Below are positions 237-6,129 of a stretch of DNA of 6,129 nt, one piece after another (position 1 is the first letter of the stretch; every line of letters begins with the position of its first letter). Position numbers and translations under genes: made by a program. Source of the DNA: Haloquadratum walsbyi C23 (GTDB lineage: Archaea > Halobacteriota > Halobacteria > Halobacteriales > Haloferacaceae); contig NC_017460.1 in NCBI RefSeq assembly GCF_000237865.1, positions 1 through 6,129 on the forward strand. Direction: 5' to 3'. The notes beneath the pieces are model-generated. The model was given only the letters and a program-made list of their open reading frames with translations, was not told where the DNA came from and ran no database searches.

Positions 237-272
237 CGTCAGATTGTACCGATAACGACCGTGTTAGTCGTC

Positions 273-380
273 TTGCGTCAACTTGCGCAAGGTTGCACGG
301 TTATGTGTCAACTTGCACAGTGCCGTGCAAAGTCGCACGAGTGAGTGCAAATCTGCGAGGGACGTGCGCATGAGTGCGAA
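273..380. repeat. Helically phased TTGCRC / GTGCAA hexamer array with a dyad centre near 321/322
   Basis: TGCR cores are at 274, 284, 294, 314, 326, 346, 354, 365 and 375, all close to multiples of about 10.1 bp. Degenerate copies are at 304 and 334. TTGCAC at 293 and 313 mirrors GTGCAA at 345 and 325, and both pairs are centred on 321.5. A 13-mer GTCAACTTGCRCA occurs at 277 and 307, 30 bp apart. The array ends on the ATG at 370. Confidence 0.75.
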
Positions 381-1263
381 CCCTCACAGAGACGCCGAGA
401 AACGTGCTCAATACGTCGCGAGGACGACCGACCTCGACCATCGCAAGGCACTCGCACTCGCCTATTCCGAGCAAGGGTGCAGTGAACGCGGGATTGCTGA
501 TAATATCGACTCGACCAAAGGCACCGTCTCAAATTATCTCGACGAGATCGGCGAGCGATACGGTCCCGAGACGGTCGTCGCGACCGGCATCGCCGAGAAA
601 GAGGACCTGACGCCGGTCGAAGAGCAACCGACGAAAGGACCGCTGGAGACCATCGACGCCGGTCGTAAAGTCGTCCTTGAAGGAGAGAGTCGAGGACCGC
701 ACACTGTTGAACGATACTTCCGCACATGGGTGCGAGACGGTCGGATTCATCGAGATGCAAAACTCGCACTCTCACTACATGATCACGGCGACGGGGACAC
801 ACGAGACCGTCTCAGTAATCTCGAATGGGACGCACACCACTGCACATACGACCCTGATTATACTTTTGTGAGTGCTGGCGAGAGTCGCGGCTGTTGGACC
901 TTCGATACTGACCCCGTGACTCTCAATGCCATTCGTGAGGTCGTGCATGTCCCGCCTCTCGATACGACGCCTCTTGTCGCCGAGACTCTCCCTCGTCGTG
1001 AGGACCTCGACCCATTCGAGTGCATTAATCCTGATTGCTCAGTCAACGAGGCACACTCAGGTCTCGACCTTCGTGCCTATCCGAGTCTCGGAGGTCCCGC
1101 AATCGAAATTACCGAGATGACAGACTTCGAGACCGTCTCGCACGTCTGTCTTGAGTGCCGGTCGTTGTTTACACCCGTGCCGGTCGGCGTGCCTGATCAG
1201 GAGAACAACGGCGACGAGGACAACGAGGACGACGATAACGTGCTCGTGGAGGCAATGCAATGA
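370..1263 (+). CDS. Acidic DNA-binding protein (297 aa from ATG 370) with an N-terminal helix-turn-helix, a C-terminal Cys4 zinc-ribbon-like motif and a poly-acidic tail
   Basis: This is the long ORF 283-1263 of the track. I prefer ATG 370 because the TTG-283 extension is basic and translates the hexamer repeat array. The HTH is about nt 439-549 (HRKALALAYSEQGCSERGIADNIDSTKGTVSNYLDEI). Cys pairs are CINPDC (1021-1038) and CLEC (1147-1158). The tail is DQENNGDEDNEDDDN. The stop TGA 1261-1263 overlaps the next ATG (ATGA). Confidence 0.8.
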   Translation: MSANPHRDAEKRAQYVARTTDLDHRKALALAYSEQGCSERGIADNIDSTKGTVSNYLDEIGERYGPETVVATGIAEKEDLTPVEEQPTKGPLETIDAGRKVVLEGESRGPHTVERYFRTWVRDGRIHRDAKLALSLHDHGDGDTRDRLSNLEWDAHHCTYDPDYTFVSAGESRGCWTFDTDPVTLNAIREVVHVPPLDTTPLVAETLPRREDLDPFECINPDCSVNEAHSGLDLRAYPSLGGPAIEITEMTDFETVSHVCLECRSLFTPVPVGVPDQENNGDEDNEDDDNVLVEAMQ

Positions 1264-2963
1264 CCGTCGAGAATGAGGACGGCGACGAGATACGCCGCCT
1301 GATCAAGCCGCAAGACCACGAGTTTACCGCGAATTTCAATTATGATAACGGACTCGACGCATGGCTTGCCTGTGACTCGGTAGTGAAGGACCACAACGGC
1401 TCATACGAGACCGAGACCGACGCCCTCGGCGAAACATGGGACGTGACCCTGTACTATCAAGACTCGTCTATCTTGCCACCTCGTGACGGCACGACGCCGA
1501 ACGGCACCGAGATCGAGCACGAACAAATCCGTGAGTTTCGCATCCGTGTCGAGGCTCAGGACGAGCTCGGAGAAAAAAAGGCGAACTATCATATTCGTCC
1601 CCGCTGGCGTCGTATGCGCGTCGAGACTGACGAGGGAGACCAACACGAGTTATCAATCCCTCGTACTCTTGTGAACGAACACGACGCCATGAACGTCCGC
1701 GTCTCAGGGTCTAATATTGACTTTTGTGATTATGGCGACCTACTCATGTGTGCCGCGAGTGCCGTCGATGTGAGTGCACATCACTTCCGCGAGTCATACC
1801 GACACGAGACCAGCAACATTCAGGACGGCGCGAAATACGTGCGTGTCCACGAGGACGTATCTGGTCCCGTGCATGCTCGCACTGGTCCCTTAGTCTCACT
1901 TGCGCACGTATTGGAGAACGACCGTGAGGGCTATCGGAAACTCGTGCAAAACGACAGCAACGAGAGAGGGCGTCAGTTAGCCGGTTATTATCATACCTGT
2001 ACGCTCGGACCTCAGAGAGTCCGTGAGGTATTCCCTGATCATGTCTTGCCCGTCGAGTGCAAACACTACTACGCTCGCGAGGCGCACTCTCGACCTGACT
2101 CTGACCCACTCTCTCACCCGAAAGTAGAAGTCGCCTATCAGACAAGCCGGACTGACGACACACTGCATCTTACCGACGAGAATCTCGCCCAACTTGACGA
2201 GGAACTCACCGAATGGCTGTATGCTATCCTCGCCGACGCCGGTCTCGACCTGAGGGCGAATGAGAACGTCTATGTCGAGGACGAATATTTCTCAGTCGAG
2301 AACGCAACCACGACCGCATCCGTTGTCGACCTCGACCTTACCGAAGTCAGACACGAGCAAGAGTCGGTCGTCTACAAGCATCTTGCTGACGGCATGGCAC
2401 CCACTGATCAGGAATGTCTCAATGTGCTCGTCTCCGACGGTGGTGCCGTGAGTCCTCAGGACCTTGCCGAGTCCACAGGACGACACGAAGATACTGTTTA
2501 CAATTCCCTTGCGAGAATGAACGACCTCGTGACACACACCTACGGCGAGGTCTCATTGAAGTCCACATATACCAGTGAACTTGTCGCCGACGCACTTGAT
2601 CAGGCACAACAAGCCGTCGATAACGCCGCTAAAACTGCCGCTGATGCCGTCCACGCCAGTAAACGAGGTCTCGATAATGCCACGAGTGCCTTTGTTGCAT
2701 GGTGTGAACGATACGGCGTCAACTACAACGACAACGGCGACGGCATGATCATCGACCTCGGTCGCGTCGATAGTATCAAAGAAGTGCGTAATATCTTGCG
2801 TAGTGGCTTCGACCGCTGGTGCAAGATGAAACGAGACGCTATCACCTTCAAATCTGCAAAAGTCAAATGGGAACACGAGGACGACGGCAAAGACCTCAAT
2901 TACTTGCCGTCCTCTCCTACCGTCCGGTCTCACTCTCAACGAGCGTTTACTCTCCTCAAGTGA
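1260..2963 (+). CDS. Large acidic protein (567 aa) with an internal winged-helix DNA-binding domain. It is a candidate replication or initiator-type protein, and the function is unproven.
   Basis: It is an uninterrupted 1.7-kb ORF with an ATG start overlapping the upstream stop (ATGA at 1260-1263). A wHTH-like segment lies at nt 2412-2531 (ECLNVLVSDGGAVSPQDLAESTGRHEDTVYNSLARMNDLV), followed by an Ala/Gln-rich helical segment. Composition is acidic. I saw no Walker or HUH motifs I could trust. Confidence 0.85.
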   Translation: MTVENEDGDEIRRLIKPQDHEFTANFNYDNGLDAWLACDSVVKDHNGSYETETDALGETWDVTLYYQDSSILPPRDGTTPNGTEIEHEQIREFRIRVEAQDELGEKKANYHIRPRWRRMRVETDEGDQHELSIPRTLVNEHDAMNVRVSGSNIDFCDYGDLLMCAASAVDVSAHHFRESYRHETSNIQDGAKYVRVHEDVSGPVHARTGPLVSLAHVLENDREGYRKLVQNDSNERGRQLAGYYHTCTLGPQRVREVFPDHVLPVECKHYYAREAHSRPDSDPLSHPKVEVAYQTSRTDDTLHLTDENLAQLDEELTEWLYAILADAGLDLRANENVYVEDEYFSVENATTTASVVDLDLTEVRHEQESVVYKHLADGMAPTDQECLNVLVSDGGAVSPQDLAESTGRHEDTVYNSLARMNDLVTHTYGEVSLKSTYTSELVADALDQAQQAVDNAAKTAADAVHASKRGLDNATSAFVAWCERYGVNYNDNGDGMIIDLGRVDSIKEVRNILRSGFDRWCKMKRDAITFKSAKVKWEHEDDGKDLNYLPSSPTVRSHSQRAFTLLK

Positions 2964-2994
2964 TGCCGTCCTCGTGAGTGGCAACACTCTCGAC

Positions 2995-3006
2995 GACCCT
3001 CTTTTT
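2995..3006 (+). terminator. Oligo-T (T5) archaeal-type termination signal downstream of the 567-aa gene
   Basis: GACCCTC followed by TTTTT (3002-3006) lies 39 nt after the TGA at 2961-2963. A weak 7-bp stem (3008-3014 with 3036-3042) follows. Confidence 0.4.
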
Positions 3007-3257
3007 CGACCCTCACGCGACATCTGACCGCCTTCGAGGGTCCCCTTTCGTCGTGATCGGTGTGGTGCGCGTCGAGATCGGCGTCAGTGCTGGTTTGGAA
3101 TTTGGTGCGACTCACCGGACTCGCTGTTAGGGGTGTGCCTAAGGGCACAACATCAAAACACATACCGTAGTTTTGCTCGCGCAAAAATTTCTACACACAA
3201 TATCACTCGTGATGTTGTCTCGTTCGGAGCTCCAATTGAGAACGAGACTGCACACTC

Positions 3258-3279
3258 ACAGATTAGACAGATTATCTGT
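3258..3279. repeat. ACAGATTA x2 (period 9), the second copy forming the 6+1+6 palindrome ACAGAT-T-ATCTGT
   Basis: Copies are at 3258-3265 and 3267-3274, and the palindrome is at 3267-3279. A third ACAGATTA at 3532-3539 abuts the iteron block. Each element alone is short enough to occur by chance. Confidence 0.3.
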
Positions 3280-3365
3280 GGAGATACAGCACTATGGAGT
3301 GACTATTCTTTATATGTGTTTTTGCTACACAAACCATGACTGACGGCACTCGTGTAGCAATATCC

Positions 3366-3416
3366 TATTTAAAGAAGTGCCTCGGGAATCCCTGATTCGC
3401 GTGTCCGGCATATAAA
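3366..3416. promoter_or_regulatory. Two canonical TATA-like boxes in gene-free DNA (TATTTAAA at 3366-3373; TATAAA / TTTATA at 3411-3416), possibly promoters of an unannotated small RNA
   Basis: The sequences match the archaeal TATA consensus (TTTAWA-like) on one or both strands. No ORF of plausible composition lies downstream in either direction. Confidence 0.25.
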
Positions 3417-3473
3417 CGGGGGTGTGGGGTTAGGGTGTGATCGTGCCCAATCCCTCACGGTTTGTTAGATTCA

Positions 3474-3489
3474 ATGTGAGGATGTGAGG
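3474..3489. repeat. Tandem 8-mer ATGTGAGG x2
   Basis: Exact tandem copies lie at 3474-3481 and 3482-3489. CCTCAC at 3453-3458 is complementary to either GTGAGG, giving alternative 6-bp stems. Confidence 0.4.
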
Positions 3490-3538
3490 AGAGAAAAGAC
3501 GACAAATAGAGTTCTATTTCTGTCGATAGGTACAGATT

Positions 3539-3601
3539 AAACGTTTTCAAACGTTGATTATACGTTTAATTTTACACGGTCATTACACGGTTCTACACGG
3601 T
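3539..3601. repeat. Six consecutive 10-11-bp-phased direct repeats (iteron-like): 3x (A)ACGTT followed by 3x TACACGGT
   Basis: ACGTT occurs at 3541, 3551 and 3562. TACACGGT occurs at 3573, 3584 and 3594, giving spacings of 10, 11, 11, 11 and 10. The first half is AT-rich (GATTAAACGTTTTCAAACGTTGATTATACGTTTAATTTT). The repeats lie in non-coding DNA between convergent genes. Confidence 0.8.
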
Positions 3602-3625
3602 CACATGTCTGTGGCGCCTGCTCAC

Positions 3626-3637
3626 AAAACACAAAAA
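3626..3637 (-). terminator. Oligo-T termination signals (T5 and T4 on the minus strand) ending the reverse gene block
   Basis: Plus-strand A5 (3633-3637) and A4 (3626-3629) lie 8-19 nt beyond the TGA (3645-3647) of the 108-aa gene. Archaeal RNA polymerase terminates at oligo-T tracts. Confidence 0.5.
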
Positions 3638-3644
3638 TCAATCC

Positions 3645-3971
3645 TCAGAAAAATGAATCCACGCTGACGAATTGGTGCATGTATCCTCGGTCGCTGTGCC
3701 AGTCCTCGCTTAGTCTATCATCTACAGTATCGGCGTCGACTTGCTTGGGTGGTTGATTGTCTCCAAGATCGTCAAAAATGTATGTGCCCTCCTGCTCGAC
3801 GAGCTCCGAATGAGTTTCCTTATTAAGTCTAAATCTATCTTCCTCTTTTGCGAGACGTACCTCTGTGGGTGCACCATTGATCGTGCCGTCAGTGCCGAAT
3901 TTCTCCTGTGGTGTTCCGCCATACGATTCGATTAATTCTTTCTCAATTTCTGTGTGATCGAAGTCTGTCAT
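3645..3971 (-). CDS. Small acidic hypothetical protein (108 aa)
   Basis: The ORF has an ATG start, very acidic composition and the same orientation as the ATPase operon. Oligo-T runs follow immediately on the coding strand. No motif was recognised. Confidence 0.7.
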   Translation of the reverse strand: MTDFDHTEIEKELIESYGGTPQEKFGTDGTINGAPTEVRLAKEEDRFRLNKETHSELVEQEGTYIFDDLGDNQPPKQVDADTVDDRLSEDWHSDRGYMHQFVSVDSFF

Positions 3972-4117
3972 ATCTGAGTTTCGTGTGTGTGCGTGATTTG
4001 TAATCGATTCATCTGAGTTGCAGCTGCAATCGGGATCGGCGACGGGTGCCGGCGTGATCGTGCCGGCGGTGTGACCTTGAGCCGATTTCTCAGTAACCTC
4101 GCGTCTGTGTATAACAT
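3968..4117 (-). CDS. Candidate 49-codon basic ORF (MLYTDARLLRNRLKVTPPARSRRHPSPIPIAAATQMNRLQITHTHETQI), translationally coupled to the 108-aa gene
   Basis: Translated by hand, with ATG at 4117-4115. Its TGA (3970-3968) overlaps the ATG (3971-3969) of the 108-aa gene as ATGA. It starts 16 nt after the ATPase stop. It is basic and Pro/Arg-rich, unlike its acidic neighbours, so it may be non-coding structured DNA or RNA instead. Confidence 0.25.
   Translation of the reverse strand: MLYTDARLLRNRLKVTPPARSRRHPSPIPIAAATQMNRLQITHTHETQI
4035..4086. other. GC-rich structured island inside an AT-richer region, with nested complementary segments and a direct repeat GTGCCGGCG x2
   Basis: GTGCCGGCG occurs at 4046-4054 and 4060-4068. 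Each copy holds the palindrome GCCGGC, so the two copies can pair. The outer ATCGGC (4035-4040) is complementary to GCCGAT (4081-4086). The island lies between the ATPase stop and the 108-aa start and overlaps the candidate 49-codon ORF. Confidence 0.4.
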
Positions 4118-4133
4118 ATTATGTGGTTAGTGG

Positions 4134-4979
4134 TTAGTCGTCGGCAGTGGCTTCGGTGGTGTCGGTCGTATCCGGCATCTCTGTGTACTTGTCAACCCAT
4201 GATTGGGACATATCGACAACATCAGCAACCTCGTATGTGGAGAGTCCTTTTTCTCGTGCCCGTTGTGCATCTGATACTTTTTGCTCGTGTTCTACTTCTT
4301 CAGGGTCTTTTGTGGTCTCATCTTCAATATTGACAAGTTCGTTTGCATTGAACTCATCAGATGATAGTAGTGCATCTTTTTTCTTTGTGATTGCCTGAAA
4401 ATACGGGTCATCTAATGCGTCGAGATTCGGAAAGGCAACCCGTTGCACATCGTTGTATGATTCGGTTCGCACATCGCCTCTATCAAATGTTGATGTGACT
4501 TTGTACGGTCTGAAGTATCCTATCGGTCTCTCAAGACACCACAGACGATAATCAGCACTTCGGCGTAACCGCTTATCGGCATCACTCCAGTGGGGCAATG
4601 TGCAGATCGTAACAATCCGTTTCTTGCGCATCAATTGCCAACTTCTGCCTAAGTTCACATTCTCATTACTCATCGAGCGTCGTGCATCGCCGGCACCGGC
4701 ACCCGCGAGTTCATCGAGAACAATTACACTCGGTTGCTCCTTGCTAGGATGTTCCCGCCATCTCTCCAAATACTGTTCCCCACTCAGGGTGAAGTCTCTC
4801 GGTGACAATTGATAGTCAAATGCCTTAGAGACCGCCAAAGCGGTGGAGACGGCGGCTGTCGTTTTCCCGACGCCGGTGGCTGAGTTCTCTGAGTCGCAGA
4901 TAATACGAGCACCACCAGATCGGGGACCGAAAACCCCGTGCATCAAATCATCCCAAAAGTCGGTGTCTCTCAGATGCAT
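4134..4979 (-). CDS. P-loop NTPase (ASCE/AAA-like core) with an acidic linker and a C-terminal helix-turn-helix (281 aa)
   Basis: Walker A is SATGVGKTT (nt 4857-4883). Walker B is VIVLDE (nt 4710-4727). A hydrophobic strand ending in polar residues (RIVTICT) lies about 35 residues later, in a sensor-1-like position. The C-terminal HTH is SDAQRAREKGLSTYEVADVVDMSQSWVDKYT (nt 4182-4274). The ATG lies 2 nt after the upstream stop. Confidence 0.9.
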   Translation of the reverse strand: MHLRDTDFWDDLMHGVFGPRSGGARIICDSENSATGVGKTTAAVSTALAVSKAFDYQLSPRDFTLSGEQYLERWREHPSKEQPSVIVLDELAGAGAGDARRSMSNENVNLGRSWQLMRKKRIVTICTLPHWSDADKRLRRSADYRLWCLERPIGYFRPYKVTSTFDRGDVRTESYNDVQRVAFPNLDALDDPYFQAITKKKDALLSSDEFNANELVNIEDETTKDPEEVEHEQKVSDAQRAREKGLSTYEVADVVDMSQSWVDKYTEMPDTTDTTEATADD

Positions 4980-4981
4980 TA

Positions 4982-5653
4982 TTAGATTAAATCTGAGTAA
5001 TCAAACTCAGCAATCTCGCTGGTATCATCGGAGAGACCGACATCAAGCCCGATTTCTAGGAGCACATCATTTGCGATTTTAAACCCACTATCAAGCACAT
5101 CGACCGGCAGTGCTGAGAGTTCTGTTTCACCCAGTGGGTCGCCAGTGTGAGACGGTCGGTCAAATGGTGAATCCTCCCACTCCATCGCTATGCCGTCTCT
5201 ATTTGTTGGCTTGCGAATGTCGTTGTACTCATGCCACTCGCGAGCGACAACAATATCTTGTTGAATTAACTGGACAAGTCCGGTAATCTCAATTTGTCGT
5301 CGGGGCAATATCTCAGCGGGTTTGCTGAGTGTTGGCTCCTTCTCGATGTGTTCGTCTAGTGTGATGTTATAGACGTGCCTATCGTACCACACATCCTCGT
5401 GTTGAGATTGAAGAATTACGGGGCGAATATCCAGCAAGAATGAATCAAGAACGGCTTTCAGTTGGGTTATTGCTTGCACGTTGCCAACTTCGCCACTTTT
5501 GCGGGCTGATTCAACATCGGCACGAGTTTTGATGTACTGCGACCGATAGTTGAGAATTTCTTTCACCCGCTGGCGTTTCACATCGCCGTCGTCGTCATTG
5601 ATCGAAAGCCGATTATCGTCTATGCCGTCGGTGGTGTCATTCGTGCCCGACAT
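4982..5653 (-). CDS. Acidic hypothetical protein (223 aa), tightly coupled to the downstream ATPase
   Basis: ATG start. It has a disordered acidic N-terminus (DGIDDNRLSINDDDGD), a predicted long helical segment and an acidic/hydrophobic C-terminal tail (EIAEFDYSDLI). The TAA at 4984-4982 is separated by 2 nt from the ATPase ATG (4979). It has its own promoter-like motif 25 nt upstream. Confidence 0.85.
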   Translation of the reverse strand: MSGTNDTTDGIDDNRLSINDDDGDVKRQRVKEILNYRSQYIKTRADVESARKSGEVGNVQAITQLKAVLDSFLLDIRPVILQSQHEDVWYDRHVYNITLDEHIEKEPTLSKPAEILPRRQIEITGLVQLIQQDIVVAREWHEYNDIRKPTNRDGIAMEWEDSPFDRPSHTGDPLGETELSALPVDVLDSGFKIANDVLLEIGLDVGLSDDTSEIAEFDYSDLI

Positions 5654-5668
5654 ATCTATCAGATAATT

Positions 5669-5691
5669 GCGTATGCGTATGTATCCACCGA
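5669..5691 (-). promoter_or_regulatory. Second copy of the promoter-like 14-mer, in front of the 223-aa gene and lacking the palindrome
   Basis: TATGTATCCACCGA (5678-5691) matches TATGTATGCACCGA (6067-6080) at 13 of 14 positions. Both begin exactly 25 nt from their ATG (5653 and 6042). It is preceded by tandem GCGTAT GCGTAT (5669-5680). Confidence 0.55.
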
Positions 5692-6042
5692 TTAAATGAA
5701 CATGATTAGTTCATTGATGAAGATAATCAAAAGTGAAATCGTAATCACTACACCACCGACAAGACGGATATTGCGGTTTATGCTGTTTACATCCTCAAAT
5801 TGCTCACGGAATGGTTTGTTTGGATCAATGCTTGATTCTTGAATTTCATTGAGTTGTGTGAGTATCTGTTCGTGATCGGACTCTATCTTGTCGGTAACAT
5901 CGTCACCGTTCACGGACTCAAGCCCTTCGCGGACAAGTCGCCTCATACCTTCAGATTGTGAGATGTCATTACGGGCAACGTATGCATCAACATCGCGGGC
6001 AATATCTTCATCAAGTCGTGTTTGATACCGTTCGCGTGGCAT
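5692..6042 (-). CDS. Ribbon-helix-helix (CopG/Arc/MetJ-type) DNA-binding protein with a C-terminal transmembrane anchor (116 aa)
   Basis: The N-terminus ERYQTRLDEDIARDVDAYVARNDISQSEGMRRLVREGLE fits the strand, helix, loop, helix RHH pattern (nt about 5908-6042). An acidic linker follows. The C-terminus LVGGVVITISLLIIFINELIMFI is a hydrophobic helix (nt about 5695-5763) running to the last residue. Confidence 0.85.
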   Translation of the reverse strand: MPRERYQTRLDEDIARDVDAYVARNDISQSEGMRRLVREGLESVNGDDVTDKIESDHEQILTQLNEIQESSIDPNKPFREQFEDVNSINRNIRLVGGVVITISLLIIFINELIMFI

Positions 6043-6058
6043 ATCCGGATTATCTCAC

Positions 6059-6080
6059 TGCATACATATGTATGCACCGA
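6059..6080 (-). promoter_or_regulatory. Promoter-like element (BRE/TATA-like TCGGTGCATACATA on the minus strand) embedded in a perfect 18-bp palindrome. It is a candidate operator of the RHH gene.
   Basis: TGCATACATATGTATGCA (6059-6076) is its own reverse complement. The AT-rich heptamer ATACATA is centred 28 nt upstream of the ATG at 6042. That is the spacing expected for a leaderless haloarchaeal mRNA. Confidence 0.6.
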
Positions 6081-6129
6081 ATCGACAGATGACGTAAATA
6101 CTGACTGATCAATTCGATACCTGTCGAAA

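Follow-up and report, generated by a model that had tools for sequence, protein, structure and literature searches.

What does a plasmid-encoded DNA-binding protein do when it is fixed in the cell membrane, and which DNA would it hold there? The positioning, inheritance and export of small archaeal plasmids and virus-like elements are poorly understood, and a sequence-specific DNA binder fixed in the membrane would offer a simple and testable handle on these processes. The question is raised by an open reading frame (ORF) within 6,129 bp of Haloquadratum walsbyi C23 DNA (the window, that is, the whole stretch analysed), which a first-pass annotation had read as a ribbon-helix-helix (RHH) domain joined through an acidic linker to a terminal membrane helix. 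The window is plasmid PL6A and the ORF is its gene R4 (locus tag Hqrw_6007; the R4 of the related plasmid PL6B is Hqrw_7007; Dyall-Smith et al. 2011, 2018, 2024), because the published landmarks and three Hqrw_6007 peptides match: the length of 6,129 bp is that published for PL6A, the GC content is 51.05% (51.1% published for PL6A), GGCC is absent as published, two copies of the direct repeat ACAGATTA lie at 3258 and 3267, an inverted repeat begins at nt 107, and the peptides DVDAYVAR, NDISQSEGMR and EQFEDVNSINR, recovered from membrane preparations (Table S3 of the 2011 genome paper, PMC3119063), are all exact tryptic substrings of the ORF. R4 runs on the minus strand from an ATG at 6042-6040 to a TAA at 5694-5692; its length of 116 amino acids and its C-terminal transmembrane domain lie within the published definition of pL6-family R4 proteins (90-134 amino acids, C-terminal transmembrane domain), and the module that it opens, R4-R5-R6-R7, runs leftward on a replicon whose replicase is of the F3 (DUF7845) type; these features place it in that family.

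The membrane-anchored RHH fusion in R4 was already known as an annotation and a hypothesis. The 2011 genome paper noted that the detection of R4 in membranes fits the predicted C-terminal anchors, likened the R4 N-termini to CopG/MetJ repressors and proposed that R4 tethers PL6 to the membrane (PMC3119063). In the 2018 and 2024 family papers, every R4 carries a C-terminal transmembrane domain despite identities of 5-100%, and the start codon is always ATG. As these papers described both, the observation and the main interpretation of the first-pass annotation are a rediscovery; its remark that no characterised example of such a fusion exists holds in the biochemical sense, but the fusion in R4 itself had been described in 2011. 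The present analysis adds to this known protein a wide family of the same layout, a portable gene module, a co-variation between the R5 tail and the R6 type, and two mapped candidate binding sites (O1 and O2) that make the tethering hypothesis directly testable. We put at about one half the probability that R4 resides in the membrane as an autoregulator and, by binding its operators, would keep the plasmid there as well.

Architecture and family of R4

The predicted N-terminal RHH domain was supported by a borderline Pfam match, by orthologues scoring above the Pfam cut-off, by AlphaFold2 and by conserved signature residues. R4 residues 9-42 matched Pfam RHH_1 with E=4.8e-4 and 20.4 bits (gathering cut-off 20.5); close orthologues (56-61% identical) reached 20.8-22.9 bits and the very divergent R4 of plasmid pBAJ9-6, named 'ribbon-helix-helix protein, CopG family' in RefSeq, 23.8 bits, all above the cut-off, and the R4 of pLT53-7 gave no RHH_1 match in Pfam. 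RHH membership is supported at the level of the family and is marginal for the window sequence. Across 75 family members, R9, R34 and G40 were invariant, and Q7, T8, E31, R35 and L36 nearly so. The AlphaFold2 monomer computed from a 23-sequence alignment was extended over residues 1-11 and formed helices at 12-25 and 29-44 (predicted local distance difference test score, pLDDT, ~75), reproducing the strand-helix-helix order of the fold; a monomer computed from 15 close orthologues was unusable (pLDDT 60.6, with the strand modelled as a helix). In phmmer and profile searches of PDB sequences, the best and only match was the RHH regulator ArtA (weak, E=0.095), and NCBIfam gave weak aCcr1, NikR and RelB-type RHH hints only. 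The profile phrog_24852 (74 positions) matched R4 residues 1-71 with E=3e-38, ending before the membrane helix; it may mix soluble and anchored relatives, because ORF15 of Halorubrum pleomorphic virus 2 (HRPV-2) is 74 amino acids long.

The hydrophobic helix was likewise found to run to the very last residue, as judged from hydropathy, from AlphaFold2 and from published mass spectrometry (MS) of membrane fractions. The Kyte-Doolittle mean over 19 residues (KD19) peaked at 2.65 for residues 98-116 and was at least 1.6 in windows from residue 90, no window before residue 87 reached 1.0, and the terminal helix of the AlphaFold2 model spanned residues 90-115 (pLDDT 81-86). Two arginines, R91 and R93 (in NIRLVGG), stand on the N-terminal side of this helix and no residue lies beyond it, both of which would fit, indirectly, post-translational insertion with the N-terminus in the cytoplasm. 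Because its one membrane helix closes the chain and no signal sequence precedes the RHH domain, R4 has the layout of a tail-anchored protein. The overall architecture of a predicted cytoplasmic RHH domain, a linker and a C-terminal membrane helix, lacking any extracellular domain, is supported by sequence, conservation and published proteomics.

The linker is acidic, as had been proposed (12 D/E against 4 K/R in residues 43-92), but it is not a plain spacer, since a conserved helix and a juxtamembrane motif lie inside it (Table 1). Residues E54, D56, H57, Q59, I60, L61, E66 and Q68 of this third helix are invariant among the orthologues, as are R79, F82, N86, R93, G96 and G97 in and around the juxtamembrane motif; the length of the intervening spacer differs by up to 25 residues.

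A search of 1.84 billion cluster representatives with a profile built from 15 orthologues (E<=1e-3) returned 82 proteins, 81 besides the query and most of them metagenomic. A hydrophobic segment followed the RHH domain in 72 of the 81 representatives (KD19>=1.6); 40 of these 72 had a single helix with 0-5 residues after it, and in 31 of the 81 the hydrophobic span was longer, consistent with two helices. The remaining nine were tail-less by the KD19 threshold, two of them with weaker hydrophobic ends. Most matches aligned to profile positions 1 to ~45-70 only, so the tail did not drive the search, and the match to nine tail-less proteins means that soluble relatives could be found by it. R4 proteins down to 5-30% identity retained the same layout. 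The breadth of this family appears to be new, because BLASTp with R4, as reported in the family papers, matched pL6 homologues only. The aligned family members differed too much to allow a pattern scan; tblastn of a typical member (P0027) against PLSDB and a phage collection gave no match, and tblastn of R4 against phages gave chance-level matches only, plus HRPV-2 ORF15. Published peptides of the PL6B R4 (Hqrw_7007) resemble representative P0016, which is ~40% identical to the PL6A protein; PL6A and PL6B coexist in one cell, and the divergence of their R4 proteins would fit separate specificities for the two plasmids.

These data bear on two alternative views of the protein. One holds that R4 is not a DNA-binding membrane protein at all, its RHH match arising by chance and its hydrophobic end being buried or aggregation-prone. 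The marginal Pfam score of the window R4 and the lack of a significant PDB or Foldseek match could be taken that way, but orthologues above the Pfam cut-off, an RHH signature conserved across 75 sequences, the presence of R4 in membrane preparations and a tail in 72 of 81 representatives make it extremely improbable. The other holds that R4 is an RHH repressor which its anchor renders inactive or locally confined, to be set free by proteolysis or by a membrane signal, DNA tethering being incidental. R4 is laid out like membrane-bound regulators, its linker spacer is variable and protease-accessible, and soluble relatives end after helix 3 (HRPV-2 ORF15 with 74 amino acids, several tail-less family members, and phrog_24852, matching residues 1-71). 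We nevertheless regard sequestration of this kind as very unlikely, given the absence of an extracellular sensor domain (0-5 residues after the helix in 40 of 81), the occurrence of both N-terminal and juxtamembrane peptides in membrane MS, and the restriction of a conserved juxtamembrane RxxGG-type motif to 17 of 81 representatives.

Candidate operators O1 and O2 and a model of R4 action

The best-conserved DNA around R4 consists of two short sites, one upstream of R4 and the other upstream of R5. O1, already published as the 'R4 proximal inverted repeat', lies at -34 to -17 from the R4 ATG (centre -25.5) and overlaps the TATA position expected for a leaderless transcript; according to the 2018 and 2024 papers, such repeats, with AT-rich centres, occur at -16 to -25 in every plasmid. 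An arm of at least 9 at this position was found in none of 3,000 shuffles, and ten contigs with a PL6A-type R4 carried O1 in the same register. O2 lies at -33 to -18 from the R5 ATG, inside the 38-nt R4-R5 spacer, and has the same half-site spacing as O1; this second conserved site is new, going beyond the published descriptions of R4. The composite patterns of O1 and O2 each had a single occurrence in the window and never arose in 200 shuffles, and the single hexamer GSATAC occurred 10 times in 6,129 bp (4.4 expected), forming no array.

Conservation was measured by comparing PL6A with the DNA of three contigs (L003, L007 and L008). Identity to PL6A was 90-94% in the O1 block (-47 to -17 from the R4 ATG) and 88-94% in O2, exceeding both the RHH-coding DNA (78-82%) and the flanking regions (34-59%), namely the O1 flanks (38-58%), the tail-coding DNA of R4 (55-59%) and the start of R5 (34-42%). 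L007 and L008 encode an identical R4 protein and have nearly identical R4-R5 spacers, with different R5/R6 types. Because this pair shares R4 and near-identical sites, O1 and O2 belong to R4 rather than to R5/R6, and the same comparison puts the boundary of a recombination at the start codon of R5. Where the R4 protein was divergent, the locus carried different inverted or direct repeats, centred at -21 to -26.5 in most cases; many of these hold an (A/T)TAC core, to which we give little weight.

On our preferred reading of R4 as a membrane-resident autoregulator, a dimer or tetramer would bind two short sites made of G[GC]ATAC half-sites one helical turn apart. Occupancy of O1 would cover the TATA position of R4's own, probably leaderless, promoter, a second binding event would take place at O2 in the 38-nt spacer before R5, and together these would set the expression of the R4-R5-R6-R7 module. 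Because R4 cannot leave the membrane, bound plasmid copies would be held at its inner face, the presumed site of the R5/R6 ATPase machinery. We infer the binding to O1 and O2, the repression and the tethering from the patterns described above; that R4 pins plasmid DNA to the membrane, as the first-pass annotation also supposed, is a reasonable expectation that had also been reached in 2011 (PMC3119063).

Several points weigh against this reading. The R4 of the window falls 0.1 bit below the Pfam RHH_1 cut-off, the AlphaFold2 monomer models are of low overall confidence (pLDDT 61-63; predicted template modelling score 0.28 for the 23-sequence model), and Foldseek against the PDB gave no significant fold match, although the top entries were nearly all RHH proteins (E ~1 or higher). 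The repeat of pLT53-7 is centred at -11.5 and not near -25. A 12-mer, GGTG[CG]ATACATA, occurs in the same register before R4 and before R5 and could be a duplicated promoter element, instead of or besides an operator. The repeats vary although Q7, T8 and R9 are near-invariant, so that any specificity would have to be conferred elsewhere in the protein. Finally, the model alone does not explain what is gained by anchoring a plain repressor in the membrane, if the protein had no further role.

Other features of the same region were noted. A conserved TGTCGATTC(G/A)G block (6077-6089) lies immediately upstream of O1 on the coding strand and is common to the relatives, which have a second TGTCGAAAC copy further upstream of it. 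PL6A also contains the inverted pairs TCGACAG (6082)/CTGTCGA (6121) and CTGATCA (6105)/TGATCAG (nt 3). An RNA element in the R4-R5 spacer was rejected, as folding was no better than in shuffles (z=0.10) and Rfam gave nothing, and a scan for bacterial sigma-70 promoters was disregarded because the host is an archaeon.

Table 1. Positions in the window of R4, its predicted parts, the candidate binding sites and the neighbouring genes.
Feature	Position (nt)	Strand	Basis
R4 / Hqrw_6007 coding sequence, 116 amino acids + stop	5692..6042	minus	ORF listing, MS peptides, 14 orthologue clusters at 56-61% identity
RHH DNA-binding domain, residues ~5-44: strand YQTRL, helix 12-25, helix 29-44	5911..6030	minus	Pfam RHH_1, AlphaFold2, conservation
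Conserved third helix, residues 48-70, possible coiled coil or partner-binding site	5833..5901	minus	AlphaFold2 (low pLDDT), orthologue invariants
Residues 71-93 (..NRNIR at the end): acidic spacer of variable length, conserved juxtamembrane motif	5764..5832	minus	Orthologue alignment
C-terminal transmembrane helix, residues 94-116, LVGGVVITISLLIIFINELIMFI, to last residue	5695..5763	minus	KD19, AlphaFold2, family conservation, membrane MS
O1, candidate R4 operator: perfect 18-bp palindrome TGCATACATATGTATGCA, half-sites GCATAC N4 GTATGC	6059..6076		
O2, candidate second R4 site: GGATACATACGCATAC, G[GC]ATAC half-site present twice in direct orientation with 10-bp spacing	5671..5686	minus	
R5, second module gene, conserved C-terminal FDYSDLI	4982..5653	minus	ORF listing, family comparison
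R6, P-loop ATPase with C-terminal helix-turn-helix (HTH), His1 gp16-like	4134..4979	minus	Weak Pfam AAA and HTH_23 matches, PHROG DnaA-like match
R7, last gene of the module	3645..3971	minus	ORF listing; L031 homologue with PDDEXK_16
F3 replicase	1260-2963		DUF7845 match, E=9e-103
F2	373-1263		Gene list of the pL6 family

The R4-R5-R6-R7 module and its replicons

In all 13 modules R4 came first and adjoined the promoter region, and every contig of sufficient length showed the same order: the RHH-membrane gene, an R5-like gene, an R6-like P-loop ATPase gene and often an R7-like gene. R6 was 66-76% identical in the metagenomic modules. The plasmids pLT53-7 and pBAJ9-6 of the pL6 family were 85% identical to the window across the replication module/half. 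The module also occurred on small replicons that carry a DUF1424 replicase and not F3/DUF7845 (L029, L031 and L038), and this presence beside an unrelated replicase indicates that it is portable. One of these, L029 (9,196 bp), repeats its unit at 255-4837 and 4949-8998 and looks like a ~4.7-kb circle assembled as a dimer.

The C-terminus of R5 co-varied with the type of R6, as seen in the last seven R5 codons (window 4985-5005) and in L003, L007, L008, L014, L018, L029, L031, L034, L037 and L038. R5 tails of the form DYSDL[IL] or EYADIL were paired with R6 proteins bearing TGVGKT in eight modules and DEW[EQ][IV] tails with ERGSGKTT in four, and no module departed from this pairing; pLT53-7 has a tail of the DYSDL[IL]/EYADIL type and a frameshifted R6 gene. 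The R5 motif and one exception to it are noted in the 2024 paper, and the pairing with the R6 type does not appear to figure there. Because the tail co-varies with the R6 type, this pattern suggests that the R5 tail may dock on R6.

A physical R5-R6 complex, as this co-variation suggests, would suit a view of R4 as a partition adaptor: a centromere-binding protein linking the plasmid, by way of R5, to the R6 ATPase, so that segregation takes place at the membrane. A centromere-binding role alongside the ATPase had been put forward by the first-pass annotation. The conserved order of RHH gene, middle protein and ATPase would also suit partition, as would the movement of the module between replicons with unrelated replicases (DUF7845 and DUF1424), in the manner of accessory stability modules, and RHH proteins such as omega and ParG combine repression with centromere binding (PMC9499535, PMC3130281). 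Yet the P-loop of R6 reads GVGKTT (Walker A TGVGKTT) and not the deviant KGGxxK of ParA, with no ParA match in Pfam or NCBIfam; the window holds only two sites of two half-sites each and no repeat array; identical R4 proteins pair with two different R5/R6 types; only ~5 residues precede the RHH strand, leaving no ParG-like N-terminal tail; and the PL6 plasmids are multi-copy, according to the 2024 paper. These points weaken the centromere-binding proposal, and we consider it unlikely. Because R4 is independent of the R5/R6 type and both sites are linked to R4, a repressor-operator cassette, as in our preferred reading, fits better than a dedicated ATPase adaptor.

The first-pass annotation had also offered localised replication, on which no observation made here bears, and recruitment to virions or vesicles. 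The affinities of R6 bring the last of these into view as a further alternative, in which R4 marks the plasmid at the membrane for vesicles or for the capsids of a helper spindle-shaped virus, with R6 as a morphogenesis-type ATPase. R6 groups among ATPases from spindle-shaped haloviruses, and PL6 plasmids have been proposed to be satellites of such viruses (2025 preprint, 10.1101/2025.02.15.638363); spindle-shaped viruses have small hydrophobic capsid proteins, and 31 of the 81 R4-family members have a two-helix hydrophobic tail; and a 2024 survey reports PL6-like DNA to be abundant in 0.1 um filtrates. The same survey, however, gives a 34-fold lower level of a pL6 plasmid in virus pellets, the patterns used to scan IMG/VR brought up no relatives of R6, the spindle-shaped virus His1 has no RHH-transmembrane gene beside gp16, and its capsid protein gp21 and its gp17 and gp18 have no similarity to the R4 tails. 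Such an adaptor role is therefore also doubtful in our estimation, and homology of the tail to a spindle-virus capsid protein is unsupported, His1 gp17, gp18 and gp21 being unlike the R4 family. A broader and decidedly unlikely extension would make the R4 family the DNA-selecting part of a mobile export machinery of three proteins (an RHH protein in the membrane, an R5 adaptor and a morphogenesis-type R6 ATPase), with O1 and O2 acting as pac-like sites for capture into helper spindle-virus capsids or vesicles; if this were true, archaeal satellite plasmids of a new class would owe their specificity to R4.

Some further candidates and observations concern the module and its neighbours. A defence-system reading was dropped, as PADLOC gave nothing for R4-R7, and so was a fused toxin-antitoxin (an RHH antitoxin with a membrane toxin), since R4 invariably stands at the start of an ATPase operon and nothing pointed to a toxin family. 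Relatives of R6 were absent from the GTDB genome scans, as from IMG/VR, with the patterns used. The R7 of PL6A gave nothing in the Pfam scan; its homologue in L031 (3324-3650, 65% identical) carries a precomputed Pfam PDDEXK_16 match and that in L038 (2071-2394) a weak one, and the fold of R7 may be nuclease-like. On L028, a contig bearing R6, a 107-amino-acid membrane protein with no recognisable RHH domain is encoded at 98-421, upstream of the ATPase region, and may replace R4. L031 (7,703 bp) has two different RHH-membrane genes, at 709-1128 (139 amino acids) and 6423-6812 (129 amino acids), and two consecutive R5-like genes, at 1125-1790 and 1787-2434; these gene pairs reflect either the assembly of two variants or a real duplication. 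In PL6A, the small F1 region upstream of F2 contains a direct repeat, GTCAACTTGC, at 277 and 307 (window 277-331) and the inverted pair TTGCACGG (293)/CCGTGCAA (323); the repeats at 277-331 resemble the deletion-prone direct repeats described for F1 genes.

R4 among known DNA-binding and membrane-bound systems

With the CopG/Arc/MetJ proteins (PF01402; CopG of pMV158, ArtA of pSK41), R4 shares a small N-terminal strand-helix-helix domain, a gene lying beside the promoter that serves it, and nearby short repeats, inverted or direct, with a spacing of about one helical turn. Unlike the CopG/ArtA-type proteins, which are soluble and ~45-60 amino acids long, R4 continues beyond this domain into a third helix, an acidic spacer and a membrane helix. 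The omega protein of pSM19035 and ParG of TP228, as described in PMC9499535 and PMC3130281, are likewise RHH proteins that act on short direct or inverted repeats upstream of promoters, with an ATPase gene nearby. They differ from R4 in having a ParA-type partner, many-repeat arrays and no membrane anchor, whereas the partner of R4, R6, is not ParA-like. Compared with type Ib centromere-binding systems, the R4 locus thus has neither a ParA-type ATPase nor a repeat-array centromere.

Membrane-bound DNA binders offer a second comparison. The regulators ToxR, TcpP and CadC combine a cytoplasmic DNA-binding domain with a single membrane helix and bind promoter DNA at the membrane, using a winged-helix domain and carrying a periplasmic sensor domain. 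R4 falls outside this group, its domain being RHH and not winged helix, with no residues after its membrane helix. The p16.7 protein of phage phi29 is also small, but its anchor is N-terminal and its DNA-binding domain is not RHH; its role is in protein-primed replication, and its DNA binding is not sequence-specific. It is an integral membrane protein that binds displaced genome strands and the terminal protein and has been proposed to recruit replicating DNA to the membrane (PMC4974454). By analogy, phi29 p16.7 and the ToxR-type regulators would be the nearest functional parallels of R4, which is a member of neither group.

One relative from a cultured virus is soluble: HRPV-2 ORF15 resembles R4 in a weakly similar RHH domain (E=0.6, with 31% identity across 58 residues) and in the charged helix behind it, and unlike R4 it ends after that helix, without a hydrophobic tail. 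From these comparisons we infer that R4 would work like a CopG-type autorepressor joined to a membrane anchor.

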